From: an uncultured Planctomycetota bacterium
GTDB lineage: Bacteria; JAJVIF01; JAPKYR01
Assembly (NCBI GenBank): GCA_964354375.1
Contig: CAYGZQ010000003.1
Span: 50,040-114,039, forward strand
Reading direction: 5' to 3'
Length of the DNA: 64,000 nucleotides
Shown here: positions 1,143 through 26,222 of the stretch, piece by piece
How the letters are laid out: every line of letters begins with the position of its first letter
How positions within the stretch are numbered: the stretch's first letter is position 1
Position numbers and translations under genes: made by a program
Notes under the pieces: model-generated
What the model saw: only the letters and a program-made list of their open reading frames with translations
Databases searched by the model: none
Told to the model about the DNA's origin: nothing

Positions 1143-3524
1143 ATGCGTTCGAAAGCTGCACCCCTGTTCCTGTTGTGCATTCTGCTGATCCTGCTCGCTT
1201 GTATCGGCTGCTCGCACGGCGGCGCGACGGGGCCGAACCCGTTGACGCCGGGACCGTCGGGCGATCCGAGTCTTCCGAGGAGCGGAGAGGTCCAAACGAG
1301 CCATTCGCTGCTCGGCCTGTATGAGTTCATCGTGGTTCCCGACGTACCTGAGATCAGGACGGTTCCGTTACGGGACGCGATGTTCCATCTGAACGCCCTG
1401 AGATTCCTCGAGCCGCCTCCCCCGGTCAGAATCGTCCTGTCCAACTTCCAGTATGACGGACAGACAGTGGATGTGGACGTGCAGCTCGTTCATCCCTTCG
1501 CCGGACTTCCGCAGTTCACCGGCTTCGATGTGTGCGGAATCGTGATAACGTCCGGAAGCATCTCGGGCTTCAGCGATCCCGATCTTGTTGTCGCGGGGGA
1601 GGGTGACACGAGGCTCTGGAACGCGGACGGTTTCACGCGCTGGTGGAATCCGAGAGAATTCCCCTACAACAGCCAGACCCCTATGTGGGGCTATATCAAT
1701 GGCAACAAGGGCACTCCCGACGAGACGGCGCATTACACGGCCACTTTGAACGGCTTCAAGTACTTTGCGGATGGTCTGGGAGCCGGCGATACTCTGTGGC
1801 TGCTCGACCCGCTTTCGAGGGGGGTTTTCACAGCGGGATCGGCGAATACGCGTCACTACAAGATTAGATTGGGCGCTGGCCTGGTCTTCAACTACGCCGT
1901 CGATGCGTGCTGGCTTCCGCCGGACGAGACCCCGGTTATCGTCCCCGACAGCTTCCCCCCAAGCGCGAATCGCGACGAGCCCTGGCTGTTGACTGTCACT
2001 GTCACCGAGAACACGCTGTACTATGATCCGAGCGCAGGGGCGGGCGGCGGCGAACTCGGTTTGGATATGAGCTGCTACGACTGGTTCGACGCAGATCAGA
2101 ACACCGTCCGTGCGGAATGCCCCGGTGTTTTTCAGCCGACGACATCCAGCGTCCCGGTCGGCGGCAACAGCGTCTACTCAACATACCACGTTGATTTGAC
2201 CAATCCCGTTCTCACTTCGGATGATCCGATTGAGATCTGGGTGTCCGCGGAAGCGGCGATGGACTACGATGGTTTTCTTCCGGGCAAGCCCACCGCGGCG
2301 TACCTGGCTCCTCTGCAGGTTGATGTGGAGCTCCTGACTCCTCAGCAGGGCATCGTGCTGGAGTGGGGACCCGAGGGTGTGATCGATCACGCCAACCGGA
2401 TCGCCAACAATGACATCGATCCGGCAGTCATTGTGGACGGCGACGGTGAGGTCCTGATCGCGTTTGTCTGGTACTACTGGAGCAGTGTCCTTTTCAATCG
2501 TCCCTTGTTCTCCAGGTCAACTGACCAGGGGCACACTTTCAACTATTGCGAACAGGGTTACTGGCAGTCGCACAGTGTCGATGCGGACTGGAAATGCTGG
2601 AACAGCAAGTACACTCTCGGATCGGACGGGCAGGCGTTCCATTCGTATTGGGCGCCGTGCGGACACACGCTCCACAAAGCGCCCTGGGGCGGAACCTATC
2701 CCGATGTGAACGGGGGCTCGCATTCCGGACCGGAAATGGAGCATGCGGGAGAGATGCTCTATACCGCTCAGGGCTATCCGATGATGTTCGGCGACAACGG
2801 CGGCACGATCATCATGCATCGCGGCGATTACCCCAACGTCGCGGGCACCGGAACCTGGCCAGTGTTTCAAGGAACCCCGTACACCCTGGTTGCGGAGGGC
2901 ACCTCCAACTACCTCAGCCTCGCCCGATCCGCAATGAAGACATCCGACGGGCTTTGCCACCTGATCTTCTGGCACGAGGGTCTGCCATACATCAGGATGG
3001 TCTCGACGACCGATATCTCCGGCCAGAACTGGGGAGCCCCGATCCCGGTCTTCGAGGGCCTTGCGGAAATATGGGTCGGGGCGAAGGACCCGAGCCTCTG
3101 GATCGACAAGAACGACGGCTTCCACACGTCGTTGGCCGCCGAGGACTGGATGGGTAACTACCATCTCATGTACGGCTATTCCGCGACGGTCGACGGCTGG
3201 GACGAAGGTGCATTCAAAAATATCATGATAGTCCCCATCGCAGACGGCCTTAACGACACCCATGTCGTCGTCTTTGACGCCTTCGACGAAACCTACGTGT
3301 TCCTGAGTTACGAGACCGCAGGGAATGTCTGGTGCCGATATAAGAAGTTCGAGGAGAGCGAGTTCTCCGACCCGATACAGGTCAACGAGCATTTCCCCGC
3401 TAGGCTTCCGGACATCTATCCCAACGGCGGCACCGGCGCAGTCTTCGTGTACGAGGCTGACGACGGTTCGGGCAAGGACCTGACCGACATCTTTTACCGT
3501 CTGGCTGAATTCAAGGAGGAGTAA
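1143..3524 (+). CDS. Secreted lipoprotein, paralog family member A. Conserved N-terminal domain of unknown function, then an Asp-box (BNR)-containing C-terminal region.
   Basis: Lipoprotein signal MRSKAAPLFLLCILLILLACIGCSHGG; RBS GGAGGT upstream. Shared family motifs: FTGFDVCGIVI, NADGFTRWWNP, NGFKYFADGLGAGD, NTRHY, FNYAVDACW. Asp-box SRSTDQGHTF. Confidence 0.75.
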   Translation: MRSKAAPLFLLCILLILLACIGCSHGGATGPNPLTPGPSGDPSLPRSGEVQTSHSLLGLYEFIVVPDVPEIRTVPLRDAMFHLNALRFLEPPPPVRIVLSNFQYDGQTVDVDVQLVHPFAGLPQFTGFDVCGIVITSGSISGFSDPDLVVAGEGDTRLWNADGFTRWWNPREFPYNSQTPMWGYINGNKGTPDETAHYTATLNGFKYFADGLGAGDTLWLLDPLSRGVFTAGSANTRHYKIRLGAGLVFNYAVDACWLPPDETPVIVPDSFPPSANRDEPWLLTVTVTENTLYYDPSAGAGGGELGLDMSCYDWFDADQNTVRAECPGVFQPTTSSVPVGGNSVYSTYHVDLTNPVLTSDDPIEIWVSAEAAMDYDGFLPGKPTAAYLAPLQVDVELLTPQQGIVLEWGPEGVIDHANRIANNDIDPAVIVDGDGEVLIAFVWYYWSSVLFNRPLFSRSTDQGHTFNYCEQGYWQSHSVDADWKCWNSKYTLGSDGQAFHSYWAPCGHTLHKAPWGGTYPDVNGGSHSGPEMEHAGEMLYTAQGYPMMFGDNGGTIIMHRGDYPNVAGTGTWPVFQGTPYTLVAEGTSNYLSLARSAMKTSDGLCHLIFWHEGLPYIRMVSTTDISGQNWGAPIPVFEGLAEIWVGAKDPSLWIDKNDGFHTSLAAEDWMGNYHLMYGYSATVDGWDEGAFKNIMIVPIADGLNDTHVVVFDAFDETYVFLSYETAGNVWCRYKKFEESEFSDPIQVNEHFPARLPDIYPNGGTGAVFVYEADDGSGKDLTDIFYRLAEFKEE

Positions 3525-6641: not shown

Positions 6642-7352
6642 TCACTGGGGATCCCAAATGCCGGCCACACCGTCAAAGAAGACAATGTCGAGAAGCCCGA
6701 AGTAAACGGGCGCACTGATTCTGACCGTAGTAACATCCAGCCCCGGAATCGTTCCGGACGGGATGTAGTACGTATCGTTCAGAACCTGGTAACCGGGCGA
6801 GATCACCCCGCTCCAGTTGTAGATCGGGTCGCCAGGCATCAGACCGCCCGGGACTATCTCACCGTACTGACCATAAGACGCATAATGCATCTCTGCGGTC
6901 ACTTCGGCAACCGATCCGAACCCACCAGGACCGCCGATATTGAACCAGAGGAGCGACAGTATGTTGATGTCATAGTCGACCGTCTGGCCGATATAGTAGT
7001 ACGGCAGACCGGCGTTCGGGCCCGTGAGAATCGTACCCGCAGGGTTGTTGTAAGTCACCCAGCAGTTTATCAGGCCGAGAGGAATCAGGTTGATGTCAAC
7101 CTGAGCACCGCGGTTCTCGATCACGTAGAACCCGTCGTCGTTTCGACCCAGAGTCCCTTGCGCCAGAACATTGCCCTGGAGATCAGTGTAGGTGTACTCA
7201 CCTACGATGGGGCTCGACAGGTCGAAGGAGTTGAAGAACTGCTCCATCGACTGATTGCCCTTGTCAGGTGCGACTGGGTTGGAACCGTTTGAGCAGCCGA
7301 CGCCGATCATGAACACGGCAACAGCTGCAAGTGCCAACACTTTTCTTAGCAT
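6642..7352 (-). CDS. Hypothetical lipoprotein
   Basis: Signal MLRKVLALAAVAVFMIGVGCSNGS; RBS AGGAGG upstream; no recognisable domain. Confidence 0.65.
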   Translation of the reverse strand: MLRKVLALAAVAVFMIGVGCSNGSNPVAPDKGNQSMEQFFNSFDLSSPIVGEYTYTDLQGNVLAQGTLGRNDDGFYVIENRGAQVDINLIPLGLINCWVTYNNPAGTILTGPNAGLPYYYIGQTVDYDINILSLLWFNIGGPGGFGSVAEVTAEMHYASYGQYGEIVPGGLMPGDPIYNWSGVISPGYQVLNDTYYIPSGTIPGLDVTTVRISAPVYFGLLDIVFFDGVAGIWDPQ

Positions 7353-7611: not shown

Positions 7612-10284
7612 TCAGTATATGATTACGGCGATCTCGTCAACCCGGGGTCGCGCGTGCGCGTCCGGCGTAGCGCCGCTTCCAAAGCCGATCGCGGCCCTTA
7701 CACGTCCGATACCGTTCGGGTCCAGGTCTGCCAGGCGATACCTCGCCCAGTTGAACGGCCAGCCATATTCATTCCGCCCCCAGCCATATCGATCGTTGTA
7801 CGTGGCGGGGGTCTCGTCGAACCTGACGTTATTGTTGTTGTAGTACTGCGCGGTATAGTACGGGGTACCCTCGATGTAGTCGGCGGGACGGGCCTCACTG
7901 TATTCGTAGTAGTATTGCTGTTTGTTGTGCAGGCTCGGATCGTCGGGGACAGTGCCGACGCTCAGTCGGGCGTAGTTATCCCAGCATTCGTTCATCGGCG
8001 TCACCTGGGCGCCGAAAATCAGCTCTATGTACCATTCCTGCGTCGTTGCGGCTAAGGCCGGATCGGTCAGTATGGGCAGCGGGGGCGATGCGATGACACT
8101 CCAGATGTGCTGCCGCATATAGCCGGAGTCCGGGTCCATCATCCAGCATCCCCCGGATACTGCGCCACCGTATCCGGGTCTCTCGAACTGCCTGTAGAAC
8201 GCCTGCTCATTTCCGCCGTACCCCATGGTCCACGGGAACTTGTCCTGCGAGGCGCCGTCCGGCTCCGCGTTCTCGAGCTCGATGAACGCCCACTCGGTAG
8301 AGCCGACACTCTCGGAGTTCTTGTTACCCGCGACCGACCGGGCTTTCACCATGAAGTAATACGATCCTCCGCTGTTGTATGCGCTCTGCCCGCTCAGCAG
8401 GTTCAGGCATGACCAAACCTCCGGCGGAGTTGTCCCTATCTCTTTCCAGTTTTCCTGGTCGTCGTGAGGATCGCCGTCCCGGTATACGGCCCACTCGGCC
8501 ACAACCCCCGACACCTGGCTTCCGTCCCACCTCACGACTATCGCCGGTATATCGCTAGGGTTATTTATGTACTCGTAAGAATGAAGCGCAGTGCGTTTCA
8601 CCGAAAGCTCCAGATTCAACCCGGACGTGGGGAACTCCGGCGGGTCAGGCAGCTTGACATCCACCATCAGCGAAGCCTCGCTGTATCCGAAGGTGCCGTT
8701 CAGGTCTTTCACTCTGGTATCCACCGCATAGGAGCCCTCATCCGGGAAGCAGATGTCGATAGAGCCGTTCCCGAACGGGTGAATAGCGTCTATGTTTCCC
8801 GTCCCGTCGTTATACTCGGGCGGTGAGTCGTCTCCTATCTCCCAGGCAAAGACAAGGTCTTCGTTCAGGTCCTGGCAGTCGTAGTAGTTCTCGACGTTAT
8901 AGGTATGCACCTCGCCGGCTGTTACCTCGATCGGACCTGTGACAGGCCCCAACTGCGGCGGAGAGTTCGTACCTACATATGGCTCGTACACCTGGTAAAG
9001 GGCCAGGGGCGCATCTTCAGAGCCCTCGAACGATATCGGTAGTTCTTCAGGGCCCACTGTATAGCTTCCGAGGGGGCTGGTTGCCGCCACCAGCACCAGG
9101 GGGTCGTAGGTCTCGAAATTGTCCGGCACCAGCTCGGCGGTGAATGTCGAGATGTGAGCAGAATAGACATCCGAGCCTCCGACCTCCGTGGCGGGCACGA
9201 AATCCACGCCCAGGTCCGGCGATCCGATAAGCACCTGGTCGATCCCACCTGCTCCCTGCCACGTCGAGACATCGATCCTGACCTTCAGCACTCCACCGGA
9301 TACCGGGCAGTCCTCCAACTGCGGGTCGAAATAGAGTGAGTTAGCCTCTTCGTAAATGTCGATGTTAAAGGGCTCGAGGGAGTTGGCCGAGATCGGGAAG
9401 TCATCGAAGGACTGCGGGGGGATGTTGGCGGGTCGTTCCCAGCTTGCATCGACAGCATAATTGAAGACCATGAAGTCCGCGGCGGCAGGACCGAAATTCA
9501 GGGAGTAATGGCGGCGATTGGTGGACGAGCATGAGAAGCGACCCCGTCCAACCAGAACCAGGGGCTCCATGACCTCGTCGTTCGCACCCAGTCCGTCGGC
9601 GAAGTACTTGTAGCCGTTCACCGTGCTCGTGAAATGTGCGGCCTTGTTCGGCTTGCCCAGAAGCCCGTCCTTGTACCCGAGAATCCCGCCGCCGGTGAAT
9701 TCCGTGGGATTCCACCATCGCGTGTAACCGTCCGCGTTCTCGAGCCTGGTCTCGTCCGCTCCGGGCAGGACCAGGTACTCGCCGAGCAGGTAGTTCTCCC
9801 ATGAACCCCTGGAGATGACGATCCCGCGAACGTCGAAGCCGGTGTACTCGGGATGGCCCGGTAGAGGGTGCTGCAGGATTATGTCCAGAGATACTTTGCC
9901 TTCGGGAACATCGACTTCGAGCGTCTTCGGATCATAGGTCAAGTATTTGAGCATGACCGGCTCGAGGAGCGAGACGACATTCAGGTGCGCCGAGCTCTCT
10001 CGAAGGGGCACGATCTCAACCGTCTTCGTTCGGAGGTCCACCTGGAACCGCCACATGCCCCACAGGACGCGGTTTCCGCCCCCGATTTCGCCTTGGGATG
10101 TAAGCCGCATCCGATCGATGCCGGATGATGGATCGGGTACTACCGGGGGTGTTTGTCCGCAGCCCGGAAGCAACAACGCTGCGACCAAGAGGAGCGCTGC
10201 GGTAGCCGGCAGATGATTCGTCTTGGTTCTCATGATTCCTGAGGCCTTCCTGACGGGTTGGGACGCATGGCGACCCTCAAACAA
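7612..10284 (-). CDS. Secreted protein, paralog family member B (conserved N-terminal family domain plus a long C-terminal region)
   Basis: N-terminal hydrophobic signal. Motifs YTGFDVRGIVI, NADGYTRWWNP, NGYKYFADGLGAND, NRRHY, FNYAVDASW match the other three members. Confidence 0.75.
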   Translation of the reverse strand: MFEGRHASQPVRKASGIMRTKTNHLPATAALLLVAALLLPGCGQTPPVVPDPSSGIDRMRLTSQGEIGGGNRVLWGMWRFQVDLRTKTVEIVPLRESSAHLNVVSLLEPVMLKYLTYDPKTLEVDVPEGKVSLDIILQHPLPGHPEYTGFDVRGIVISRGSWENYLLGEYLVLPGADETRLENADGYTRWWNPTEFTGGGILGYKDGLLGKPNKAAHFTSTVNGYKYFADGLGANDEVMEPLVLVGRGRFSCSSTNRRHYSLNFGPAAADFMVFNYAVDASWERPANIPPQSFDDFPISANSLEPFNIDIYEEANSLYFDPQLEDCPVSGGVLKVRIDVSTWQGAGGIDQVLIGSPDLGVDFVPATEVGGSDVYSAHISTFTAELVPDNFETYDPLVLVAATSPLGSYTVGPEELPISFEGSEDAPLALYQVYEPYVGTNSPPQLGPVTGPIEVTAGEVHTYNVENYYDCQDLNEDLVFAWEIGDDSPPEYNDGTGNIDAIHPFGNGSIDICFPDEGSYAVDTRVKDLNGTFGYSEASLMVDVKLPDPPEFPTSGLNLELSVKRTALHSYEYINNPSDIPAIVVRWDGSQVSGVVAEWAVYRDGDPHDDQENWKEIGTTPPEVWSCLNLLSGQSAYNSGGSYYFMVKARSVAGNKNSESVGSTEWAFIELENAEPDGASQDKFPWTMGYGGNEQAFYRQFERPGYGGAVSGGCWMMDPDSGYMRQHIWSVIASPPLPILTDPALAATTQEWYIELIFGAQVTPMNECWDNYARLSVGTVPDDPSLHNKQQYYYEYSEARPADYIEGTPYYTAQYYNNNNVRFDETPATYNDRYGWGRNEYGWPFNWARYRLADLDPNGIGRVRAAIGFGSGATPDAHARPRVDEIAVIIY

Positions 10285-12767: not shown

Positions 12768-13016
12768 GTCTGCTCCTCAGGTAAAGCAACGCGAGAGCAT
12801 CCCTCTCGCGGCACAATCTTTTATCGTATGCCAAACCGGCTTCTTTGTCAATTTTCCGTTGACACAGGTTATGGTTGCCCCGCTCATTCTCTCATTATCA
12901 GAGCCGCGAGCGTAAGCGAGCGGTCCTTCCCTGTCACCGACTGATGTCACCAGTTGCCGTCGGGGGGGAACTTGCTCAGGAAGGCGTCATAGCCCCGGTC
13001 TTGATTTCAAATCCTC

Positions 13017-13045
13017 TTGACGGATCGAAATATACGTGTTACAAT
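13017..13045 (+). promoter_or_regulatory. Sigma70-type promoter (TTGACG-17 nt-TACAAT) for the 13078 lipoprotein start
   Basis: Near-consensus hexamers with 17-nt spacing; RBS GGGAGGG before the ATG at 13078. Confidence 0.5.
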
Positions 13046-13077
13046 GAACTTAACAAATCAGGCTTGGGAGGGTTCTG

Positions 13078-16000
13078 ATGTGTTATCTTCCTCGCGCCGG
13101 CGTCTTGGCCTTTATTCTTCTGATTTCCCTGTCGTTTGCCTGTGATGAAAGGGGCTTGCTTTCTCCAGAAGCGCCTTCAGTCAGGTCGGATCGGGGGGCG
13201 GCTGAGGAACCGCCGGAAGTCGATTGCCCCCCTGACCCCTAGGTCCCCGTTGAGCCTGAGCCTCGTCCTCAGCATTGGAGCGGTCCATGGCCGTTGTATC
13301 GATACCGATTCGAACCTGAGATTCCGATAGAGGAGCCATACATCCCGCCGAATCCACCCGAACCGGATCCATATATCGATGGGTCTGCTGCCGTGAGAGA
13401 GACGGTGCCCGGCATCGTGGAGCCTTCTCAGGGACTCGAGCCGGCTCCGATGCCACAGTACATCCCCGCGCCGCTGTCTACGGCGCCCTGTGAAGACCTC
13501 AACCCGGATTGCGATGCTGCCGATCCCAATGGCGACCCTGATGGCGATGGATTGCCGAATCAGGAGGAGCCTGATAACGACAACGACGGAATACCCGATG
13601 AAATGGACCTGGACTGTCTGATGGCGGGCGCTTGCGATAATCCGGGGAGCCCTGAATACGAAGCTTGCCACGATGATCCGGATGATCCTGATGATGATGA
13701 CGATGGAATACCGGATGAATTCGACCCCGACTCGATAGACTCCGATGCCGACGGCATCGTAGACATCTGTGAGGATTACTGCGATCCTGAAGACAAGGCG
13801 GCAGGCTACTGGGACTTACTTCACGAGTGTTTAGGCTCGTGGGAGGGCCAAGACGAATGGACAAATGATGAGGATTGTGATGGCGTCCCCGACCCATACG
13901 AGGATTGGTGGGATAATCGCGACACTGACGGCGACGACATACCCGATGTAAGCGATCCAGACGACGACAACGATGGTAGACCGGACGACGATGACGACGA
14001 TGACGACGGCGATGGCATACTGGATGTGGCGGACCCGGACGGCGACTGTGATAACGACGGGATTCCGAACCTCTACGACTGCGAGTCTCTATGCTACACC
14101 GGGCCTACGTGTTGTTGCCGGGCCGAAGGCGTTCTCCAGCCAAAGATATGGTGGCCGGGCGAGTTCAAAGAAATGAGCGAGTTTGACTACCTGGAGGTGA
14201 TATTCATCAATTTCGGCGTTATAGATCATTGCCCCCCCTGCTACGAGTTAGGGCCCTTCCCCCCGCCAAGATACCGCGTCTTCTTGTTTCTGAACGACGT
14301 TTTGGAGGCCGTATTCAGCACCGACGAGACGGAGACAAGAGTGCTCCCCGTTGCCGTATACCGCCGTGATGCGGCGCGCAATGTGCTTGGCAAATTCGTA
14401 GACGGGCAGAATGATCTTAAGCTAATAATCGAAGACCAGTGCTGCAAGAGAGTATTGGGCATTCAGAAGGATTTCACAGTGAATGCCACGGTCTCTTACA
14501 GAGTCAAGCCATACAGAATGACGTATATTGACCGTGCGGAATTCCCGGCTGGTTATGTGAATAACCCCCTTTATAACATGCAGGGGTTCGCCGGACAGGG
14601 CCAGATACACCAAACGGATCGTTATCAACATGTGTCTTTCAGCCTCCAGGACGAGCTGCCTCACTACTCCGTTTACCTTTCACCCGAATGGTATGAGGGC
14701 TGCGCCCCAAAGGATACCTTCGCGGCTTACAGGATGGGCTCCCAAGTCGGCGTTAAAGTGGATTTCTATAGCCCGGGGACTTACGCAGCCAGCGATCACC
14801 TTTTTCTCCTCCCCTACCAGGTAGCAGGTCTGGGACCACTGCAACTCTACGCAGAAGCCCACATGGTTGTCGTTAACCGACAGAACCCAGGCGTTGTCAA
14901 ACAAGGGACTATGAAGCCTGACAGTTCGTACGGCTATGATGTGGGCCGCCAGCTTCGCCTTATCCGTTGGGATGACGACGACAGAGTGAACGCGGACGAT
15001 ATTCTGAGCGCCCGATGGATTCTTCCCTCTCCGACATTCGATGGCGTGAACGCTTGGTACGACTTCCAGAATGGACAGATCATCGGCAACAAGGTTGAAT
15101 TCACTTACTACGCCGGCGGTGTGTCGTGGGGACCTCCGGCTAATGGCGGAATTATAGAAGAATTCAGGTTCTTCACCTCATACGCCCAGAACTGGACCTC
15201 TAGATCTCATCTCTGGCCGACTGATTTCGCCCTCGAGATGGTCGGACGCTATGCAAGCGGACTGACTAACCCGCAACAGATAATGACTGCAGTTACGGCG
15301 AGAATGCGAGGCCCGAACAACGTCTGGACCAGCGAGGTGAACGATCTGAGTAATGTTACCCTGGACTATGACACAACCCAGCCCGGAAGTTATGACCCGT
15401 ATAGGGCGTTTGATGAGCTTCACGGCCCTCCGGTGGACTACATAATTTATCATTTGGAATGTGACGACTATGCTAACATCCTCACAAGATTCATGCGTGA
15501 CCAGGGCATAGACGCGGAGTCATGGTATGTGTCCGCAGGTCATGACTGCAACCAGCATCCGGGGGGACTGACTAAGAAGGAAAGGGTACGCATGTGGATG
15601 TATGCTCCCGGTGATCCCGGTGATCCCAATCCCCCGGCTTCTCCTCCTCCTTTATACAGACATCCCCCATGGCAGGCCGGATATCTACCGCGGAATGAAC
15701 ATTGGCCAATCGTTTATAACGACTTGCAGTGCTTAGACGGCGCCACGGACACGTGGGGATTTAGGTTCCATCAGGTATGCGAGTACGACGACGACATCTA
15801 TGACCCTGTGCTCTATGATGTGCAGAAGGGGATTGTGCCGTGGGACCAATACAAGCAAGACTACCTGAGTATTTGGGATCGCACGTGGGATATTCCTCCG
15901 CCTCCTTTTCCCCCAGTCCCCGGTGACCCGTGGGTCGACTGCCTCATGTTCAAGCTGCCTTACCCCTGTGCGTACGGGGTCGCTGACGAGGAACACGAAG

Positions 16001-16182
16001 GGCTCAAATCTGTGCTACAGGTAGGTGTTGAGGATCGCGACTATGTGTACAGAATCAAGCACAGCGGGTATCGCTATCCGGATCCTAACCCTGAGTCCAA
16101 TCACCAGTACGTTGTTCCCCATTTCTACATTTGGAACTGGGAGCATCCGATGGATGGGTGGCAACAACGGTTGGACCCATAA
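13078..16182 (+). pseudogene. Lipoprotein with ~20 thrombospondin-type-3-like Ca-binding repeats and a C-terminal domain carrying a transglutaminase-like Cys motif. The reading frame is broken by an in-frame TAG at 13240..13242. Disrupted, or read through.
   Basis: ATG at 13078 encodes MCYLPRAGVLAFILLISLSFAC (lipobox). TAG lies 54 codons in. The same frame continues …PPDP*VPVEPEPRPQ…YRYRFEPEIPIEEP… into ORF 13294..16182, which starts at TTG and has no signal peptide. Repeats of DPDGDGLPNQEEPDNDNDGIPDE type. C-terminal LECDDYANILTRFMRDQGIDAESWYVSAG matches the transglutaminase Cys region. Confidence 0.5.
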
Positions 16183-16216
16183 ATGGAGTACAATACTCTG
16201 CATAGGAGACAGCAAG

Positions 16217-17059
16217 ATGAATACATTACGAGGAATAACACGGACGGCCCTGGTTTTAGCGGGGCTAGTGGCTGCGATGATGATGATCTCCTGTAGTGAA
16301 AGCCCGACGAGAGCGGAGGAATTCGTCGATATCGTTCCCTGGAAAGTCGATGTGAGAGTGCCGGGTCTACAGCTTGCCGATCTCTTTCCGGACGTTAGCA
16401 GCCCCATTCGCGTGGAGCCCAATTATATCTCCTTCCATGTTACACAGGCGGTCGAAACGCCGCAGGTGTATTCGGACCAGATGCTGGCCCTGGAAATGAC
16501 TGACGAGAGACAAGACGAGGTGAGGAGAGCACTCGAACGAGTATTCCCCTCGTGGCTGGTCAGCGACAAGGTTCTGGCTCTTGTCAGACTCGATTCCCTC
16601 GATTCCTCAGAGTTCTGGATTGACAGCACTATGCACATGGGTGATCTCAAGGGAGGGTATCAATACTGGTTCAGTCTGGCGATAAGGGTGGACGATGTCA
16701 GGATCGCGGTCGCAGGCGTCCCTGAGGCGGGATTGGCCGAGGCTTGCATACTGGCCGACTACAAGAGCATCGACGAATTCGATCAACTGGCTCACCAATA
16801 TCTGAATCTCTCGGAGGACGAGAAGGCCGAAGACGATTATCGGCCAACACGGGGTCTGAGTACCGCGTCAGGCCTCATATGTGTCGACTCCGGCAGCTGG
16901 CGGACTGAGGGATACAGGATCAGAGTGGAGGAGGAATACCGGAAAGGACGTGTGCGCAGCTTCACCCGAGATTTCTCCTCGCCGGACGGCGGACAAACAC
17001 TGACAACCATAGAGTTCAACCTATCCTACGGCCAAGAGGTCTCCAAGGGCGCCGACTGA
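16217..17059 (+). CDS. Hypothetical lipoprotein
   Basis: Internal start MNTLRGITRTALVLAGLVAAMMMISCSES (lipobox); the upstream ORF extension lacks features. Confidence 0.6.
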   Translation: MNTLRGITRTALVLAGLVAAMMMISCSESPTRAEEFVDIVPWKVDVRVPGLQLADLFPDVSSPIRVEPNYISFHVTQAVETPQVYSDQMLALEMTDERQDEVRRALERVFPSWLVSDKVLALVRLDSLDSSEFWIDSTMHMGDLKGGYQYWFSLAIRVDDVRIAVAGVPEAGLAEACILADYKSIDEFDQLAHQYLNLSEDEKAEDDYRPTRGLSTASGLICVDSGSWRTEGYRIRVEEEYRKGRVRSFTRDFSSPDGGQTLTTIEFNLSYGQEVSKGAD

Positions 17060-17164
17060 TGGGTCGCGTCTCTCGATATTTTCGGCGTCCTCGTGGTTGA
17101 TTCGGTCAAGAGAATAACCACCAAGGCACCAAGGACACCAAGAAGAAAAAGAAAGAAGATCCGG

Positions 17165-18817: not shown

Positions 18818-21800
18818 CTACCGTCGCTTTTTCTTCTTCGGTTGCTTCCGAAATGAGAATGGGCGTCTTATCCCGTGAACCACTTTGCTGGCGGATTCCG
18901 CAACCGCGCCGCCGATGCTCGTGGCGCGGGATTTCGCCATCTCGAAATTCGCTTTGGCCTGGGCGTTGTGCGGGTCACAATCCAGCGCTTTCGCGAATTC
19001 GCGCGTCGCCTGAGTGTACAGAGCTTCCCGGAAGTAATAGCTTCCGATCGCGACGTGGGCTTCCGCGGAGTTCGGGGCTGTCGCCACGGCGAGCTCGTAT
19101 TCCTCCCTGGCCTTGTCCTTGTTGCCGCGCTCGTAGAGGATATCGGCCATACGAATGTGACCCTCTGCAAAGCCCGGAAACAGGTCGAGCGATTTCTGGC
19201 AGTGCCTCAGCGCGAGCTCGAGTTGGCCCTTGTCCTTGTATGCCTGCGCAAGCTGGAAATTCAGTGAGAAGTTGTCCGGCTTGATCTCCAGACCCTTCTG
19301 GAACTCGGCGATCGCCTTGTCGTACATCCCCTCTTCCATGTAGGCCGTGCCTTTGGTGACGTAGTGGTGTATCACCGGCGCGGCGGGGAATCTGCCGGGA
19401 AAAATCCGCTGTGTTTCGCCGACATCGCCAAACTGGATCACGACGCACGCCATGCTCTCCTTGATCGACGATCCTGCTCCCTTGTACCTGGAGCCTGCGA
19501 GCGAGATGATCCGCTCGCACGCCTCCTGCGTGTCTATCGTGCTTGTGACGCAGTTGCGGATTTCCACGTCCGACAACACGCGCCCGAGGTCCGATGTCCC
19601 CACGATGAGGACGTCTCCCGCCCTCAAATGTCTTTCGGCGGTCTCGACCTGCACCGTCAGCTCTTTCCCCAGCATGCGCTTCTCGTCGCCGCGTTTCATG
19701 AACGTGCGTATCGTGGCGCTGCGAAGCAGGTAGGCGAAGCAGGCCCCGACCTTGGCGAGGTAAAGGCGATTCTGGCTGATGGACGCGATAAGGAGCTCCG
19801 CGCCGATCGATCCTATCTTGTTGAGCCTGAAGGCCTCCTGGTTGACGATCCCGTTTGCCCTCTGCATCGCCGATATCGCGAGCTGGTTCGGGTCCTCAAG
19901 TATGTCGAGCCGGCTCAGAGACGAGTAGGAGTAGACCTGCTCGGCCTCTCTGAGCGCGAGGTCGGCGCACCTGAGGGCCTCATCGACCTGCGGGCTGATC
20001 CCCGATGCGACTCCGAACGCGCCTCGTATGCCGATGCTGGACGGGGGATAGCGCTGCGCAAACGTCATCCTCGATTCTTCCTCAGGTGGGGCCTCTTCCT
20101 CCGTCGACACCATCGCGAGGTAGCTCGAATTCCCGGGGATAAACGACAGGATCGATTCCTCGATCTCCGCCGCTGCTGCGCTTGCCTGGTAATCGTCCAG
20201 ATCCTCGATCAATTCCCCCCAGCTCGAATAGCGGGCCGTGTAGTCCTTTCTGAGCGCGCGCTCCAGAATCCGTCTCAGGTCGACTGATATCCCGGTGGCT
20301 TCGAGCCTTTCTCGCGGGTCCTCGTACACGTGCATCGCCGATATCTCGTGCGGCTCGCCGTGGAAGAGGTCGTGGCCGGTGATCAGGTAGTAGATCACAA
20401 GCGCCCACGCGTACACGTCCGACGCACCGGTCTGCTCGCCCAGCCCCGTTATCTGCTCCGGGCTGAGATACTCCGCGCGGTTGAGTTTCATGGGCGTGTC
20501 GTAGAAAACGTCTCTCTCGAAGCCCGACAGCTTTACTTTGAGCTGGGGTTTGGACACGACAAACGCGCTCTCCGGCGACAGACGCCCGTACACCTCGAAC
20601 CCTTCCGCCCTCAAATAGATCAGGGCCTCCGCGATCAGTCTTCCGACTTCGACCGCGTACCCCTCGCTCATCGGACCGTACTCGGCGACATAGTCGGCCA
20701 GAGTATGCGTCCTCAGCTCGCTAACGAAGAAATACGCGCCCTTATCGCGGCCGTGGTCGAGGACGCGGATAAGTCCCGGATGCTCGTATTCCGCCGCCAG
20801 CTTCATCCGCCCGTTCCAGGCCTCGTCCAGCTCATGGGTTTTGGGCACTCTGTAGAACCAGAGCATTACCGGGGTATCGGTGCCAAGGTGAGTTCCCGCG
20901 TACAGAACCAGGTCCTTCTCGGGTGACAGCCCGTATGCCCCTCCGATGTTCGTGAGCCGCTCTTCGAGACGGTATTTCCCCTTGATCGTCGTTCCCTGGT
21001 CTATCAGATGAATGTTGATGCCGCTGTCGGCGCTGCCGATAAGATGATCGATATCGTCGGCCAGATCGTCGTAACTCTGGTACCGCTGGAGCGGGTCCTT
21101 CTCCAGCATTTTGATCATGATGTCGTGGAAAACGAGGGGAATCTCATATCTTTCCTGGATTTTCGCCAGTGCTTCCGTCTTGATGTGGGCATCGAAGATG
21201 TCCTGGGGAAGGCCGTCGAAGAGGAAGTCGCCGGTCACTAGCCGGAACAGTATTCCCCCGAGAGCGTAGATGTCGGAGCGCTGGTCCACCGGAACATCGT
21301 CCTCGTCCAGCCACACTTCCGGCGACGCATACTGGTAACCCGTCGGCGGAACCCCGTATGTCTTGCGTATGAACCTCTCGGTCTCGTGCAGACGAAAGTC
21401 TTTGAGGAGCACCTCGTCGCCGCGCGGGTTGATGAGGATATGCTCCGGCCTGAGAGCGCCATGGGCCTCCAGAGATCCCTTGGTCTTGAGATAGGAGAGA
21501 GTGGCCAGCACCTTCCTGATAATCCTGAGAGCCTGTTCCGGCGCCAGCTTTTTTCGATCTTCGAGAACCGCAGCAAGAGAGGAGGTAACGTGCGTCTCCA
21601 CAACGTAGTACTGGTTCTTGTGCCATCCCTGGGCGATGAGATCGACCACGTGAGGGTGTTTCAGCTGCGCCCGCCCGTAGAGGTCCTTGTTGATCGCCCT
21701 GATGAAATCCTCTTCCCGCGACAGCTTATCGTCGTAGAATTTGATCGCGACGAACTTGTCGCGGCCGCGCTCGAGGGCCTTGTAGAGGCCGGAAAACTGG

Positions 21801-22687
21801 CCGCTGCCGAGCTCCTCCAGGACCTCGTAGCGGTTGTCCACGATCTCTCCCGCGAGGCTCCCCTCGGGTCGGGCCTTCTTGAAGCTGACCGCCGCCAGGG
21901 CGTACGCGACCGCCTCCTTGAACTCCGTCAGCGATGCGTAGCGCTTGGACGGATTCTTCTGCAGCGCCGCGATGAGAATCTCCTTTACCGCCATCGGAAT
22001 CTGCTTGTAGTACTCGATGTGCGGGGTGGCGTCGACATACACCTGCTGGTACCGGACCTTGGCGACATCGCTGTCATGGAAAAGCGGGAAACCCGTCAGC
22101 ATGTGATAAAGCACCATCCCGATCGAGTAGATGTCGGCCGCCTGCGTGATCTCTCCAATCCTGTGGATTTGCTCGGGTGATACGTACTTCGGGTCCTCCC
22201 ATCTCTTCCGCGGCTCCTCGTCCATCATCTCCATCGCTCGACCGACATACCAGTCGGCAAGCTTCACGTCGGTCAGCTCGTCATTAACAAGTATATTGTT
22301 CGGTTTGATCGCCAGGTGCGGGGGAAGTCCGATGTTGTATCCCGTTTCCAGCGCCTCGATCACTTTCAGCGTAATCGACAAGGCGCTGGTGAGGTCCACG
22401 GTCTCGTTCTCGATCAAATATTCTTTCAGGCTCATCGGCAGGAACTCGGTCGCAATCTTCATTCGGTCCGAATGCCTGCCGACCTCCCATACCGGCACCA
22501 GGTTGGGATGCTTGATCGTGCGAAGATTGTTCGCGACATTCTCGCATTCGTCGATGAACCCCTCGTGGACTCCGTAGGGTTCCTTGAAGATCTTTACGCA
22601 TGCCACGCGCGGGTCTTTGGGGTCTTTCCCCTTGTATACAAGGGCCGCTTCACTGCCTCGTATGCGGTCTACGGGTTCAAAAGGCAT
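18818..22687 (-). CDS. Multidomain signalling scaffold: three tandem kinase-like domains lacking catalytic residues, a degenerate PP2C-like domain and C-terminal TPR repeats
   Basis: Start is at the internal ATG 22687, which has an AGGAG RBS; the ORF-track extension to 23065 lacks support. Catalytic-loop equivalents are HLAIKPNN, HGALRPEH and YGRLSPES (no Asp). DFG equivalents are ADW, DFR and GFE. PP2C-like segment is LYLAKVGACFAYLLR…GDVLIVGTSDLG. TPR examples AYMEEGMYDKAIAEFQKGLEIKPDN. Confidence 0.8.
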   Translation of the reverse strand: MPFEPVDRIRGSEAALVYKGKDPKDPRVACVKIFKEPYGVHEGFIDECENVANNLRTIKHPNLVPVWEVGRHSDRMKIATEFLPMSLKEYLIENETVDLTSALSITLKVIEALETGYNIGLPPHLAIKPNNILVNDELTDVKLADWYVGRAMEMMDEEPRKRWEDPKYVSPEQIHRIGEITQAADIYSIGMVLYHMLTGFPLFHDSDVAKVRYQQVYVDATPHIEYYKQIPMAVKEILIAALQKNPSKRYASLTEFKEAVAYALAAVSFKKARPEGSLAGEIVDNRYEVLEELGSGQFSGLYKALERGRDKFVAIKFYDDKLSREEDFIRAINKDLYGRAQLKHPHVVDLIAQGWHKNQYYVVETHVTSSLAAVLEDRKKLAPEQALRIIRKVLATLSYLKTKGSLEAHGALRPEHILINPRGDEVLLKDFRLHETERFIRKTYGVPPTGYQYASPEVWLDEDDVPVDQRSDIYALGGILFRLVTGDFLFDGLPQDIFDAHIKTEALAKIQERYEIPLVFHDIMIKMLEKDPLQRYQSYDDLADDIDHLIGSADSGINIHLIDQGTTIKGKYRLEERLTNIGGAYGLSPEKDLVLYAGTHLGTDTPVMLWFYRVPKTHELDEAWNGRMKLAAEYEHPGLIRVLDHGRDKGAYFFVSELRTHTLADYVAEYGPMSEGYAVEVGRLIAEALIYLRAEGFEVYGRLSPESAFVVSKPQLKVKLSGFERDVFYDTPMKLNRAEYLSPEQITGLGEQTGASDVYAWALVIYYLITGHDLFHGEPHEISAMHVYEDPRERLEATGISVDLRRILERALRKDYTARYSSWGELIEDLDDYQASAAAAEIEESILSFIPGNSSYLAMVSTEEEAPPEEESRMTFAQRYPPSSIGIRGAFGVASGISPQVDEALRCADLALREAEQVYSYSSLSRLDILEDPNQLAISAMQRANGIVNQEAFRLNKIGSIGAELLIASISQNRLYLAKVGACFAYLLRSATIRTFMKRGDEKRMLGKELTVQVETAERHLRAGDVLIVGTSDLGRVLSDVEIRNCVTSTIDTQEACERIISLAGSRYKGAGSSIKESMACVVIQFGDVGETQRIFPGRFPAAPVIHHYVTKGTAYMEEGMYDKAIAEFQKGLEIKPDNFSLNFQLAQAYKDKGQLELALRHCQKSLDLFPGFAEGHIRMADILYERGNKDKAREEYELAVATAPNSAEAHVAIGSYYFREALYTQATREFAKALDCDPHNAQAKANFEMAKSRATSIGGAVAESASKVVHGIRRPFSFRKQPKKKKRR

Positions 22688-22837
22688 CAAACACTCCTGC
22701 GGAATGGTGTACCCACATCCGTCCGAATGATTATACCATTCAGACGCTTTTGAGGGCGCAAGTGTTCCCGACATATGGCTGTCGCGTAGCATGCGCGGGG
22801 TGGGGCTGTTGAAAAAACCTGTTTCGATGCCGAATCG

Positions 22838-22991
22838 GGTGGCACCCTCAGGCGGAAAGACTGCGCGAGCAGGCTTTCTGCCTGAGGGTGTTCGATCTAT
22901 TAATCCCTCTATCCATGAGGCATTCAGGTGATTGGTCCGGCACCCCCAGTCCGCCGCGGCGGACGAGGACTCGCCTGAGGGTGCCACGCCT
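22838..22991. promoter_or_regulatory. Divergent regulatory region with three copies of the motif GTGGCACCCTCAGGCG, one direct and two inverted
   Basis: Copies at 22838..22855, 22874..22890 (revcomp, 1 mismatch) and 22973..22991 (revcomp, exact 16-mer). The first two form a 17-bp-stem hairpin. Confidence 0.45.
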
Positions 22992-23045
22992 GATATGCCC
23001 TCCTTGCGCGAAATTGCGCTTTTTCGACAGCCCAGGACGCGCATG

Positions 23046-23075
23046 TTGCGCGTTTCCCGAATCATGTGATATACT
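23046..23075 (+). promoter_or_regulatory. Putative sigma70 promoter (TTGCGC…TGaTATACT, extended -10) for the radical SAM gene pair
   Basis: Extended -10 TGATATACT lies 38 nt upstream of the GTG start, with RBS AGGAGAGG. Confidence 0.4.
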
Positions 23076-23113
23076 CTGGTGGCTGTAAAAAAAATTTCAG
23101 GAGAGGAAAGAAA

Positions 23114-24619
23114 GTGACAGGGAATCCTTCGATCCTCTTTGTCGCGTTAGTACATCGCGAGTACTCACCGTTACGGTCTGCCTATTCCGGCATGGGGAAT
23201 ACCTATGAGCTTCTCCCGCACAAGTACGCGGTGCTTTCGCTTGTGGCGTGGCTGAGGGAGAACGGCTGCGACGGTCGCTATGTCTGGATTGAGAGCAACG
23301 ATCGCGAGGCAATAGCCCATGTTGAAAAGGCGATCGAGAGGTACAAGCCGGACGCGATCGGGATGAGCCTCACCACGGAAGAAGTGATCCCGCACTTCAA
23401 GATCGCCGGGGTTCTTAAGGAGAGGTATCCCGACCTGCCGATAATCGTCGGCGGGCCGCATCCGAGCGCACTTCCGGAGCATACGCTCGAGAACTTCCCT
23501 GCCGTCGATTACGTTGCGATAGGGGAGGGGGAGCGGACGCTCACCGAGTGGCTGTTCGCGATCTCTCTCGGGGGCAGAAGATCCAGGATGCGGGACATTC
23601 CCGGCCTGGCTTTTCGCGACGACGACGGCAGCATTGTCGTTACGTGTCCAAGAGAGAAAATCGAGAACATCAATGTCCTCCCGAATCCCGCCTACGATCT
23701 GATCCTCGATCCCTCGGATCCCTCCGAATCCAGACCCTGCGTGCCAATCGTCTTCTCGTACGGATGCCCCTTTTTCTGTACCTTCTGCTCCGCGGATCAC
23801 GGAAACTATCGCTTCGTCAGGCCCGTGAACGCCGTGAACCGGATTGAATGGGCGCAGAAGAAGTTCGGCGTGACCGATTTCGCCTTCTGCGACAGCTTCT
23901 GGCCGCCCTCGGGGAAGTGGCTCGACGAGTTCTGCAAAGAAATCGAAAAACGCCGGATCAGCATCAGGTTCCACTTCGAGACCCGTACGGGCGTCCTGAC
24001 TCCCAAGCAGTTCGAGAGGCTGAGGGATATCGGGGCGCAGGCGATAGCCGTAGGCGTCGAGTCCGGCGACTCCTTCGTCCTGAGGAGAATCAGGAAAGGG
24101 ATCACCGTCGATCAGGCCAAAAAGACATTCGACGCTCTCAACAGTGTCGGGATTTTCGCGCGCGCGCTTTTCATGTTCGGGAACCAGGGAGAAACCCTCG
24201 AGAGCATCCAGGCTTCAATTGACCTCATGCACAGGCTCAATGCTCCGGTTGTCACCCTCAGCGTTTTCCGTCCGCTGCCCGGCTCCGATGATTTCGGCCT
24301 GATTACCGACCGCGAGAAGGACTGGTGGATGCGCGGCGACGAATCCGGTCGATGGTGGGCGGGCGGAACTTATCCCTCCATCTGCGAGCTTTCCGTGGAA
24401 GACCTCCTGCTCCTGGCAAGGGAAGTGGGCCTGCGTTACCCGCTGCGGGCATCGTATGTCCTCCAGCACATCATCGGCGGAAGTCTTTCTATGAAATACC
24501 GCATGGTTGCCGCGCGAATCTTCCTTGCGCATCTCAGACGCTACCTCCTCGGCATTTCGGAGAGGTACGAGTTTCTGCGCACCCTCATTCGGGGCGCAAA
24601 GACGATGCTGAGAAGCTGA
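23114..24619 (+). CDS. B12-binding-domain radical SAM enzyme (class B radical SAM, methyltransferase-like), paralog 1
   Basis: CxxxCxxC cluster GCPFFCTFC. N-terminal cobalamin-binding-like domain (…DAIGMSLTTEEV…IIVGGPHPS…). Start is GTG 23114 with an RBS, or ATG 23066. Confidence 0.8.
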   Translation: MTGNPSILFVALVHREYSPLRSAYSGMGNTYELLPHKYAVLSLVAWLRENGCDGRYVWIESNDREAIAHVEKAIERYKPDAIGMSLTTEEVIPHFKIAGVLKERYPDLPIIVGGPHPSALPEHTLENFPAVDYVAIGEGERTLTEWLFAISLGGRRSRMRDIPGLAFRDDDGSIVVTCPREKIENINVLPNPAYDLILDPSDPSESRPCVPIVFSYGCPFFCTFCSADHGNYRFVRPVNAVNRIEWAQKKFGVTDFAFCDSFWPPSGKWLDEFCKEIEKRRISIRFHFETRTGVLTPKQFERLRDIGAQAIAVGVESGDSFVLRRIRKGITVDQAKKTFDALNSVGIFARALFMFGNQGETLESIQASIDLMHRLNAPVVTLSVFRPLPGSDDFGLITDREKDWWMRGDESGRWWAGGTYPSICELSVEDLLLLAREVGLRYPLRASYVLQHIIGGSLSMKYRMVAARIFLAHLRRYLLGISERYEFLRTLIRGAKTMLRS

Positions 24620-24728
24620 CCATCCCCGGTTTTCCCACAGCATTCCTGCGAATCCTTCTCTTCGCATGCTCGTCATAAGGCTGCCCAGACCCCTGCGTGT
24701 GCGCCGTGCTATACTCGATACTAACCTG

Positions 24729-26222
24729 ATGGACGAGAAGCCCACGATCCTCTTCATCGCGCTCATCCCTCGCGACTACTCGCCCTACTACGCCAAAACC
24801 TACGGCATGGAGCGGTCGTTCGACCTCATGCCGCACAAGTACGCCATTCTCACATTGGTGTCGTGGCTGAGGGAAAACGGCTGCGAGGGGCACTATGTCT
24901 GGGTCGATGGGCCCGACGAGGAAGGCCTCGGGACGATCGACAAGGCCATCGAGCTCTGCAATCCCGATGCCCTCGGGTTCAGCCTCACCACCGAGGAAAT
25001 GGCTCCCCATTACCGGCTTATCGAGCTTCTGAAGCAGAGGCATCCCGACCTTCCGGTGATCATCGGCGGACCACATGTGACGGCGGAGCCCGTGCATTCT
25101 CTCGATCTCTTTCCGCTTGTCGATTTCGTTGCCGTAGGCGAAGGGGAGCGGACTCTGACGGAACTCCTCCACAGGATCGCAGCGGGTCACGGCGATGATG
25201 AATTAACGTCCACCAGGAGCATCGGTTTCCGCGACAGCTCGGGAAGGATCGTCATCACTGCGCCAAGGGAAAAAATCAACGACATCAACATCCTCCCGGA
25301 CCCGGCGTACGATCTGATAACGGAGTCCGACCAGCCCGCCGATCGGCGCTCGGCCTTCCCCATAATCTGCTCCTACGGCTGCTACTTCTTCTGCTCGTTC
25401 TGTTCGGTCGAGCACGGGAACTACCGGTGCGTCGCGCCCGAGAGGGTCGTGGATCGCATATATCGGGCTCAGAGGCAGTACGGGATCGAGTACTTCGCAA
25501 TACGCGACAGCTTCTGGCCGCCGACGCGTGAATGGCTGGACAGGTTCTGCAGCGAAGTCGAGAAGCGTAAGCTGAAAATCCAGTTTCATTTTCAGACCCG
25601 CGCGGGGACGCTCACAGACGAGCACATGAGCCGATTGAAGAAGATCGGCGCGCAGGCGATCGGAATCGGCGTCGAGGCGGGCGATCCCGCCATTCTGAAA
25701 AGCATCCGCAAGGGCATCACGGTGAACATGGCGCGGAAAACCGTCGCGGCCCTCAATCAGGCGGGGATTTTCTCGATCACGTTTTTCATCTTCGGGAACA
25801 AGGGGGAGAATCCCCGGACCATACAGGCGTCGGTCGATCTCGCTCGCGAGATGAACCCATCGATGTCTCTCTTCCATGTCCTCTCTCCGCTTCCCGGCGC
25901 TGAGGCGTTCAAATCGGTTCCGGACGGTCGGAAGGACTGGTGGTTGAACAGCATTTCCATGCCGCCTTCTATCTGCGACGTTGAGCCCGAGGGACTGGGA
26001 CATCTCGCCAATGAGGCGTTTCTCAGGTACCCGCTAAGATGGTCGTACTTCCGCCAGCATGTCGTCGGGGCCAGACTGTCCCCCGATTTCCGCCGTATCG
26101 CAAGGCGCATCTTCTTTGTGCACGTGAGAAAATACATCCTGGGGATTTCCGAGCGCTACGGTCCGACGAGAAATCTCATACGCTGGGTCAAATCGATGCT
26201 GCGCCGGTCCGGTAGCTGCTAG
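24729..26222 (+). CDS. B12-binding-domain radical SAM enzyme, paralog 2
   Basis: GCYFFCSFC motif; collinear with paralog 1 along its whole length; start MDEKPTILFIAL. Confidence 0.8.
   Translation: MDEKPTILFIALIPRDYSPYYAKTYGMERSFDLMPHKYAILTLVSWLRENGCEGHYVWVDGPDEEGLGTIDKAIELCNPDALGFSLTTEEMAPHYRLIELLKQRHPDLPVIIGGPHVTAEPVHSLDLFPLVDFVAVGEGERTLTELLHRIAAGHGDDELTSTRSIGFRDSSGRIVITAPREKINDINILPDPAYDLITESDQPADRRSAFPIICSYGCYFFCSFCSVEHGNYRCVAPERVVDRIYRAQRQYGIEYFAIRDSFWPPTREWLDRFCSEVEKRKLKIQFHFQTRAGTLTDEHMSRLKKIGAQAIGIGVEAGDPAILKSIRKGITVNMARKTVAALNQAGIFSITFFIFGNKGENPRTIQASVDLAREMNPSMSLFHVLSPLPGAEAFKSVPDGRKDWWLNSISMPPSICDVEPEGLGHLANEAFLRYPLRWSYFRQHVVGARLSPDFRRIARRIFFVHVRKYILGISERYGPTRNLIRWVKSMLRRSGSC

Follow-up and report, generated by a model that had tools for sequence, protein, structure and literature searches.

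A putative transglutaminase-like surface protein with a DxDxDG repeat stalk and an in-frame TAG codon, encoded in a strain-specific cassette of an uncultured Planctomycetota bacterium

Introduction

Bacteria secrete cysteine enzymes with a Cys-His-Asp triad, among them the periplasmic BTLCP/LapG proteins (PF06035), which belong to the transglutaminase-like superfamily; LapG itself requires calcium for its activity, which is directed at a surface protein. LapG proteins are small and single-domain, they bind calcium within the catalytic domain and possess no stalk of DxDxDG repeats. Another described arrangement is that of the staphopain/staphostatin operons, where the gene of a papain-like protease adjoins the gene of its cognate inhibitor, staphostatins being cytoplasmic proteins of lipocalin-like structure. 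Here we describe a gene pair found in a 64,000-nucleotide stretch of DNA from an uncultured Planctomycetota bacterium (contig CAYGZQ010000003.1, positions 50,040 to 114,039 of the forward strand), hereinafter the window. With a probability of roughly 0.55 we regard the first gene of the pair as coding for a secreted, probably lipid-anchored and calcium-stalked, divergent transglutaminase-like thiol enzyme, accompanied by a cognate lipoprotein partner and inactivated in this strain at codon 55.

According to the summary given in PMC10318531, the transglutaminase-like superfamily goes back to a 1999 definition by Makarova, Aravind and Koonin, and in the papain-like fold the core helix carries the Cys of the triad at its N terminus, His and a further polar residue being placed on strands. 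As judged from its sequence, the protein described here is a probable new member of the transglutaminase-like/papain superfamily, very rare, divergent and unusual in its architecture. It shows no sequence match to the BTLCP/LapG family (no Pfam match at E≤10). Its closest comparators are given below for separate parts of the locus: the Transglut_core family (PF01841) for the presumed catalytic core, TSP_3 (PF02412) for the repeats and the staphopain operons for the order of genes.

Results and discussion

A small family and its best-conserved blocks

The original prediction, made from the nucleotide sequence alone, described an open reading frame (ORF) of 962 amino acids (aa) starting at the first TTG (13294..16182, forward strand). 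This frame is present as described, and all the peptides quoted from it were found: DPDGDGLPNQEEPDNDNDGIPDE at residues 81-103, the DTDGDD...DNDGIPN block at 210-259 and LECDDYANILTRFMRDQGIDAESWYVSAG at 721-749 (residues are numbered from this TTG). The statement that the C-terminal part has no obvious family also stands, since it has no match in Pfam, NCBIfam or PDB sequences. More generally, searches of Pfam, NCBIfam, PADLOC, PHROGs and PDB sequences with the whole protein and its parts gave nothing, and for Pfam and NCBIfam this was so even at E≤10.

A word-indexed search in 5.8 billion clusters, performed with the single sequence and with a profile, returned the protein itself only. An exhaustive HMMER search in 1.84 billion representative proteins added P0002 (36% identity, E 2.5e-52), P0003, which is a fragment, and P0004, matched weakly over a repeat. 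The family stands nearly alone: its two real relatives, P0002 and P0003, both lie on short metagenome contigs, the former on the 3.6-kb JGI contig L001 (41% GC) and the latter on the 1.2-kb contig L002 (48% GC). Pairwise identities in the three-way alignment are 35%, 50% and 34%. Pattern and tblastn scans with this alignment detected nothing in collections of genome, metagenome and viral contigs; tblastn against plasmid and phage collections was equally negative and gives no support for phage or plasmid origin. The third match, P0004 (E 3.8e-4), is a 1787-aa protein with PKD domains, which was rejected as a family member, its weak similarity being local and confined to an unannotated repeat. 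Residues 592-659 (14905-15108) correspond to this repeat of about 175 aa, six copies of which were matched with E about 1e-4. Such similarity may reflect a shared beta-sandwich module located just before the candidate catalytic core.

Conservation within the family is highest in two blocks, C-[DT]-[DT]-[YF]-A-N-[IM]-L-[TA]-R-x2-R-[DE]-[QE]-G-I-D-A, which begins with Cys723, and W-x-F-R-x-H-Q-V-C-x3-D-x3-D-P-V, which contains His826 and Asp837. The first of them includes the transglutaminase-like Cys motif noticed originally, and its core, C-x2-[FY]-A-x7-R-x2-G-I-x-A, is kept in all three members. The claim of such a motif holds as far as it can be followed by sequence, but the threshold of the family hidden Markov model (HMM) is not reached. 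The segment CDDYANILTRFMRDQGIDA aligns without gaps to the catalytic-Cys motifs of two solved proteins with PF01841 domains: 3isr, a putative cysteine protease of Cytophaga, and 6g49, a bacterial protein-glutamine gamma-glutamyltransferase (motif FCAHYAGAMAFVLRAAGIPAR). Agreement extends over seven signature positions (C0, [FY]3, A4, R12, G15, I16 and A18), and this signature has no other occurrence in 207,000 six-frame residues. Two deviations are seen, Glu for Gly at position -2 and Asp for Pro, which gives GIDA in place of the GIPAR usual for Transglut_core.

The catalytic partners of this Cys had escaped the original prediction. Since His826 is the sole invariant His after the Cys, candidates for the missing partners do exist in the canonical order Cys...His...Asp, with Asp837 as the third residue, but their alignment to the catalytic positions is of low confidence. 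The likeness to Transglut_core would include, besides the surroundings of the nucleophile, a modelled helix before the Cys motif and His followed by Asp on a presumed beta-hairpin (H-x-[VW]-x-E ... [FY]-D-P); the corresponding motifs in the PDB sequences are HACFEAY...FDAT for 3isr and HAWVEYW...VDPT for 6g49. Many members of Transglut_core are also extracytoplasmic. The differences concern spacing: a Pro-rich insert of 103 residues separates Cys from His, and the His-Asp hairpin takes 11 residues instead of 15-23.

Statistics of the transglutaminase-like assignment

Among 24,736 Pfam models Transglut_core was the sole family reached by any member. The match was obtained on a relative only, the L002 fragment, with 12.5 bits over model positions 30-72 of 108 and E 0.18, which is below the threshold. 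Comparison of the family core with a 3isr-type alignment by hhalign brought the Cys motifs together in each of two runs over 23-26 columns with P=0.0034-0.0035 and a probability of 9%, and none of 400 column shuffles reached the observed score. A P value of about 0.003 is significant for a single planned test and would not survive a database search. After removal of the insert, greedy hhalign aligned H826 with the catalytic His and D837 with the catalytic Asp, at low confidence. The AlphaFold models, whose predicted local distance difference test (pLDDT) scores below 30 give them no usable confidence, have a helix that begins with the Cys, and a hairpin spanning the His and Asp.

Several results weigh against a transglutaminase-like enzyme. 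In none of the searches was a curated threshold reached: the gathering score of PF01841 (23 bits) was not attained, and the window protein itself has no Pfam match at E≤10. The His/Asp block taken alone gave nothing significant in hhalign, and our own narrow HMM built from 3isr-like sequences scored no better than shuffles, probably due to the narrowness of the profile. AlphaFold returned unusable models both for the 682-aa C-terminal part (three sequences, pLDDT 29.7) and for the 261-aa core (two sequences, pLDDT 28.8), and Foldseek with the latter yielded noise. Cys and His are unusually far apart (103 residues) and His and Asp unusually close (11), although variable distances and large inserts are normal in the superfamily, as in TG2 and factor XIII. 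Only two or three sequences are compared, so the invariance of residues is weak evidence, and nonsense codons present in all three members mean that the function may be lost.

Taken to their end, these points lead to a non-catalytic surface or adhesin protein, in which the Cys motif is similar by chance or convergence and the C-terminal 680 aa form a novel binding or structural domain on a calcium-stiffened stalk. The unreached family threshold, the failure of the narrow HMM and the unusable quality of the models speak for it; with 26 Cys in the protein the conserved one could be structural, and the neighbourhood is crowded with orphan lipoproteins. It leaves aside, however, that conservation across the family peaks precisely in the Cys motif and the His/Asp block, that seven signature positions agree without gaps with both 3isr and 6g49, that the hhalign P=0.003 was accompanied by a matching shuffle control and that the only Pfam family touched was the predicted one. 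A purely adhesive protein is, in our estimation, rather unlikely, and a divergent transglutaminase-like enzyme is the reading preferred here.

Gene start and the TAG codon

The TTG at 13294 is merely the first start codon after a stop, and the boundary of the gene was in this respect drawn wrongly: the frame continues in the 5' direction through one TAG (13240-13242) to the ATG at 13078. The real gene spans 13078-16182 and comprises 1034 codons, of which one, codon 55, is a nonsense codon, because a promoter-like site, a strong Shine-Dalgarno sequence and a signal peptide in frame are found upstream, and the composition is equally rich in Pro and Glu on either side of the TAG (...EEPPEVDCPPDP*VPVEPEPRPQ..., the asterisk marking the stop). 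The signal peptide ends with ...LSFA-C, an atypical lipobox with Phe at -2, and is split from the body of the protein by the TAG. The idea of a surface enzyme or adhesin put forward originally gains an upstream signal peptide that fits it, but the in-frame TAG means that the gene may be inactive here: signal peptide and body are uncoupled, and in this strain the gene is possibly a pseudogene. The NCBI annotation has the 929-aa product P0001 begin at GTG 13393, inside the gene. There is a lesson for annotation in this, as the arbitrary internal start of the deposited protein hides the signal peptide and, with it, the nonsense codon.

Reading of the DNA demonstrated that both relatives are also longer than their called proteins. 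In L001 the frame of the homolog continues 5' through an in-frame TAG (L001 121-123), and the gene's own terminator is TAG as well. In L002 one frame (frame 2) runs through TAA (...NEFAC*PNW...) and TAG (...SPHE*GFLD...) and reaches the Cys motif. Altogether all three members have nonsense codons, at differing positions, four in total with no frameshifts, and in three of the four cases TAG is followed by G. The simplest reading of these stops is independent recent pseudogenisation.

The same stops might be decoded by readthrough or suppression, or they might be errors of assembly or consensus, and the full-length lipoprotein would then be expressed. Absence of frameshifts among four nonsense codons, the recurrent TAG-G context, remaining frames that are fully open and well conserved, and the intact promoter, Shine-Dalgarno sequence and signal peptide would suit such an explanation, but one of the four stops is TAA, their positions differ among the copies, the L001 gene terminates at TAG, and no codon serves as an ordinary stop in the window more often than TAG, in which 19 of 44 long ORFs end. 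No suppressor tRNA or pyrrolysine (Pyl) genes were seen in the window, which contains no tRNA genes at all. Decoding of the stops, or their artefactual origin, is accordingly improbable in our opinion. A genome-wide reassignment of TAG was rejected in view of the same 19 of 44 ORFs and the intactness of other window genes. Still more speculative, to the point of being a long shot, is the idea that the stops in every known member are not decay at all and that readthrough or suppression gates a "contingency" surface enzyme together with its partner, founding a calcium-stalked transglutaminase-like branch.

The acidic repeat region

About 20 thrombospondin type 3 (TSP3) repeats were announced for the N-terminal part of the protein. 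Their number is not borne out: the loose DxDxDG motif occupies 11 overlapping positions, which correspond to nine distinct loops within residues 79-262, eight of them strict units and one a variant (DTDGDDIPD). The region of residues 61-280 consists of Asp by 30% and contains 15 of the 26 Cys of the protein. Eight instances of an extended motif, [DN]x[DN]x[DN]G[IVLR][PLV][DN], are present in it, whereas 5000 shuffles of this region gave 0.006 on average and never more than 1. At the level of DNA five units of 35 nt are recognisable as copies with 66-80% identity, and therefore the array is a true repeat. The DxDxDG repeats are real and non-random.

Their name is a different matter. As in TSP_3 and in bacterial proteins of the OmpA family, tandem D-x-D-x-D-G-x-x-D-x-x-D units, some of them followed by Cys, occur here in an extracytoplasmic protein, so that the designation is right for the DxDxDG motif. 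It is not upheld by the Pfam model of TSP_3 (PF02412), which had no match at E≤10 either in the whole protein or in residues 61-280 alone, and the search of PDB sequences gave no thrombospondin or COMP match. In contrast to TSP_3, the units follow one another at irregular distances of 13-43 residues and lack the N-x-x-Q-x-D half of the repeat. The acidic region is better described as a generic array of DxDxDG calcium loops, calcium binding being predicted from the motif. The strand-rich character assigned to the region that follows it was read from the low-confidence AlphaFold model.

The partner gene and the strain-specific cassette

Gene 1 is directly followed by a gene for a 280-aa lipoprotein (gene 2), and the two form a conserved pair, which is also present in the unrelated 41%-GC contig L001. 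There the partner homolog (L001 1889-2995) lies directly 3' of the gene 1 homolog and has an additional C-terminal PKD domain. The partner lipoprotein has no match in Pfam, PADLOC or PHROGs, and pattern and tblastn scans with the partner alignment found nothing in collections of genome and metagenome contigs. In staphopain/staphostatin operons, too, a gene of a cysteine enzyme, here a candidate one, is at once followed by a small co-conserved gene. The partner described here differs in being a lipoprotein without a detectable family, and an inhibitory role for it would be purely hypothetical.

Exact-sequence look-ups of the neighbouring proteins allowed us to find contigs of four related strains (L003-L006). 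They are 92-95% identical to the window up to position 12988 and again from 17111, with no similarity in between, where a different gene on the opposite strand takes the place of the cassette. Only L004 spans the slot, and its gene (7734-10255) codes for an 821-aa lipoprotein with SBBP repeats; L003, L005 and L006 end within the first few hundred bases of the alternative gene. The N-terminal domain of the L004 lipoprotein resembles an 890-aa lipoprotein encoded elsewhere in the window (7612-10284). The GC content of the cassette is 54.6% compared with 58.9% for the window, and that at third codon positions (GC3) is 0.61-0.65 compared with 0.73-0.78 in the flanking genes. Based on the swap in related strains and on the deviant GC and GC3, one can therefore consider the cassette as foreign and strain-specific, inserted in a variable slot for surface proteins. 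Neither direct nor inverted repeats flank it, and no phage, plasmid or defence-system relatives of it were found by PADLOC, PHROGs or tblastn. The locus is a clean example of a strain-variable surface-protein slot, in which cassettes are exchanged between strains about 95% identical in the flanks.

Such a context invites one more explanation, namely that the pair encodes a toxin, or an envelope-directed thiol hydrolase harmful to its own cell, with a cognate periplasmic lipoprotein inhibitor, as a mobile module of competition or contingency that is often inactivated as costly. The genes of the enzyme and of the small lipoprotein are adjacent, co-oriented and kept together across very different genomes, the cassette is strain-specific and has foreign codon usage, and nonsense codons are found in all three copies of gene 1, with the two partner genes seen intact. 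The staphopain/staphostatin operons offer a precedent of a cysteine protease with a downstream inhibitor. At the same time gene 1 carries a Sec-type signal of its own, a delivery domain of type VI or type VII secretion systems, contact-dependent inhibition systems or Rhs proteins cannot be recognised in it, no secretion-system genes were seen in the flanks, and PADLOC and PHROGs gave no match. Several transglutaminase-like families are bacterial toxins (PMC10318531), which fits this explanation as well; on balance we would call it unlikely.

The preferred reading, a divergent enzyme with its partner, can be assembled into the following scheme. The segment 12989-17110 would be a horizontally acquired, strain-specific cassette of two genes. 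Gene 1 (ATG 13078 to TAA 16182) would encode a secreted, probably lipid-anchored multi-domain protein in which the signal peptide is followed, in this order, by a linker rich in Pro and Glu, an acidic Cys-rich stalk of nine loops, about 360 aa of strand-rich sequence and a highly divergent transglutaminase-like domain. Calcium may stiffen the nine-loop stalk. In the terminal domain Cys723 may serve as the nucleophile assisted by His826 and Asp837, and the activity is expected to be thiol-dependent cleavage or cross-linking of an amide bond in protein or cell envelope outside the cytoplasm. The small lipoprotein of gene 2 (16217-17059), which travels with gene 1, might be its cognate inhibitor, chaperone or substrate adaptor. 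The TAG at codon 55, uncoupling the signal peptide from the body, would make gene 1 a recent pseudogene.

If the product is a true transglutaminase-like enzyme, it represents a very divergent and extremely rare branch of the papain/transglutaminase superfamily, with an unusual architecture that joins a signal of the lipoprotein type to a calcium stalk of DxDxDG loops, a large strand-rich module and a catalytic core, and adds a lipoprotein partner dedicated to it. In practical terms the family is of modest value: three copies of it are known, each of them interrupted, and none is linked to a phenotype. Coordinates of all features are collected in Table 1.

Table 1. Features of the cassette, with positions in the window
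Feature	Position	Strand	Basis or remark
Strain-specific 4.1-kb cassette with the main and partner genes	12989..17110	.	blastn of L003-L006 against the window
Sigma-70-like promoter TTGACG-17 nt-TACAAT, with TG before the second hexamer	13017..13045	+	consensus scan, 10/12; pattern match only
Shine-Dalgarno sequence GGGAGGG, 5 nt before ATG 13078	13066..13072	+	read from the sequence
Predicted signal peptide MCYLPRAGVLAFILLISLSFA, then Cys22; lipoprotein type or signal peptidase I type	13078..13143	+	read by eye, no predictor
In-frame TAG, codon 55, within the Pro/Glu-rich linker (...EVDCPPDP*VPVEPEP...)	13240..13242	+	in-frame translation
Open frame after the TAG, stop TAA 16180-16182	13243..16182	+	holds the ORF from TTG 13294
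Acidic, Cys-rich region	13474..14133	+	residues 61-280, 9 DxDxDG-type loops
Strand-rich region of ~360 aa, no known family	14134..15210	+	conserved in L001 and L002
Candidate divergent transglutaminase-like (papain-fold) core, residues 640-880	15211..15933	+	
Cys723, candidate nucleophile in CDDYANILTRFMRDQGIDA	15460..15462	+	invariant in 3 members; aligned to the catalytic-Cys motif of 3isr
His826, candidate catalytic His in WGFRFHQVC	15769..15771	+	only invariant His after the Cys in the window/L001 alignment
Asp837, candidate third triad residue in IYDPV	15802..15804	+	conserved in the window and L001
Co-conserved partner gene, 280-aa lipoprotein (MNTLRGITRTALVLAGLVAAMMMIS-C), no known family	16217..17059	+	BLASTP E=9e-20 to the L001 downstream gene

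Other genes of the window

The neighbouring large ORFs 6642-7352, 7612-10284 and 1143-3524 belong to no Pfam family, and the first two of them code for lipoproteins. Orphan secreted proteins seem to be abundant in this genome. Farther downstream, two tandem genes of B12-binding radical SAM proteins with about 66% DNA identity occupy 23066-26222. They are adjoined by an ORF of 1415 aa (18818-23065), in which a Ser/Thr kinase, a PP2C-like region and tetratricopeptide (TPR) repeats were recognised by eye.

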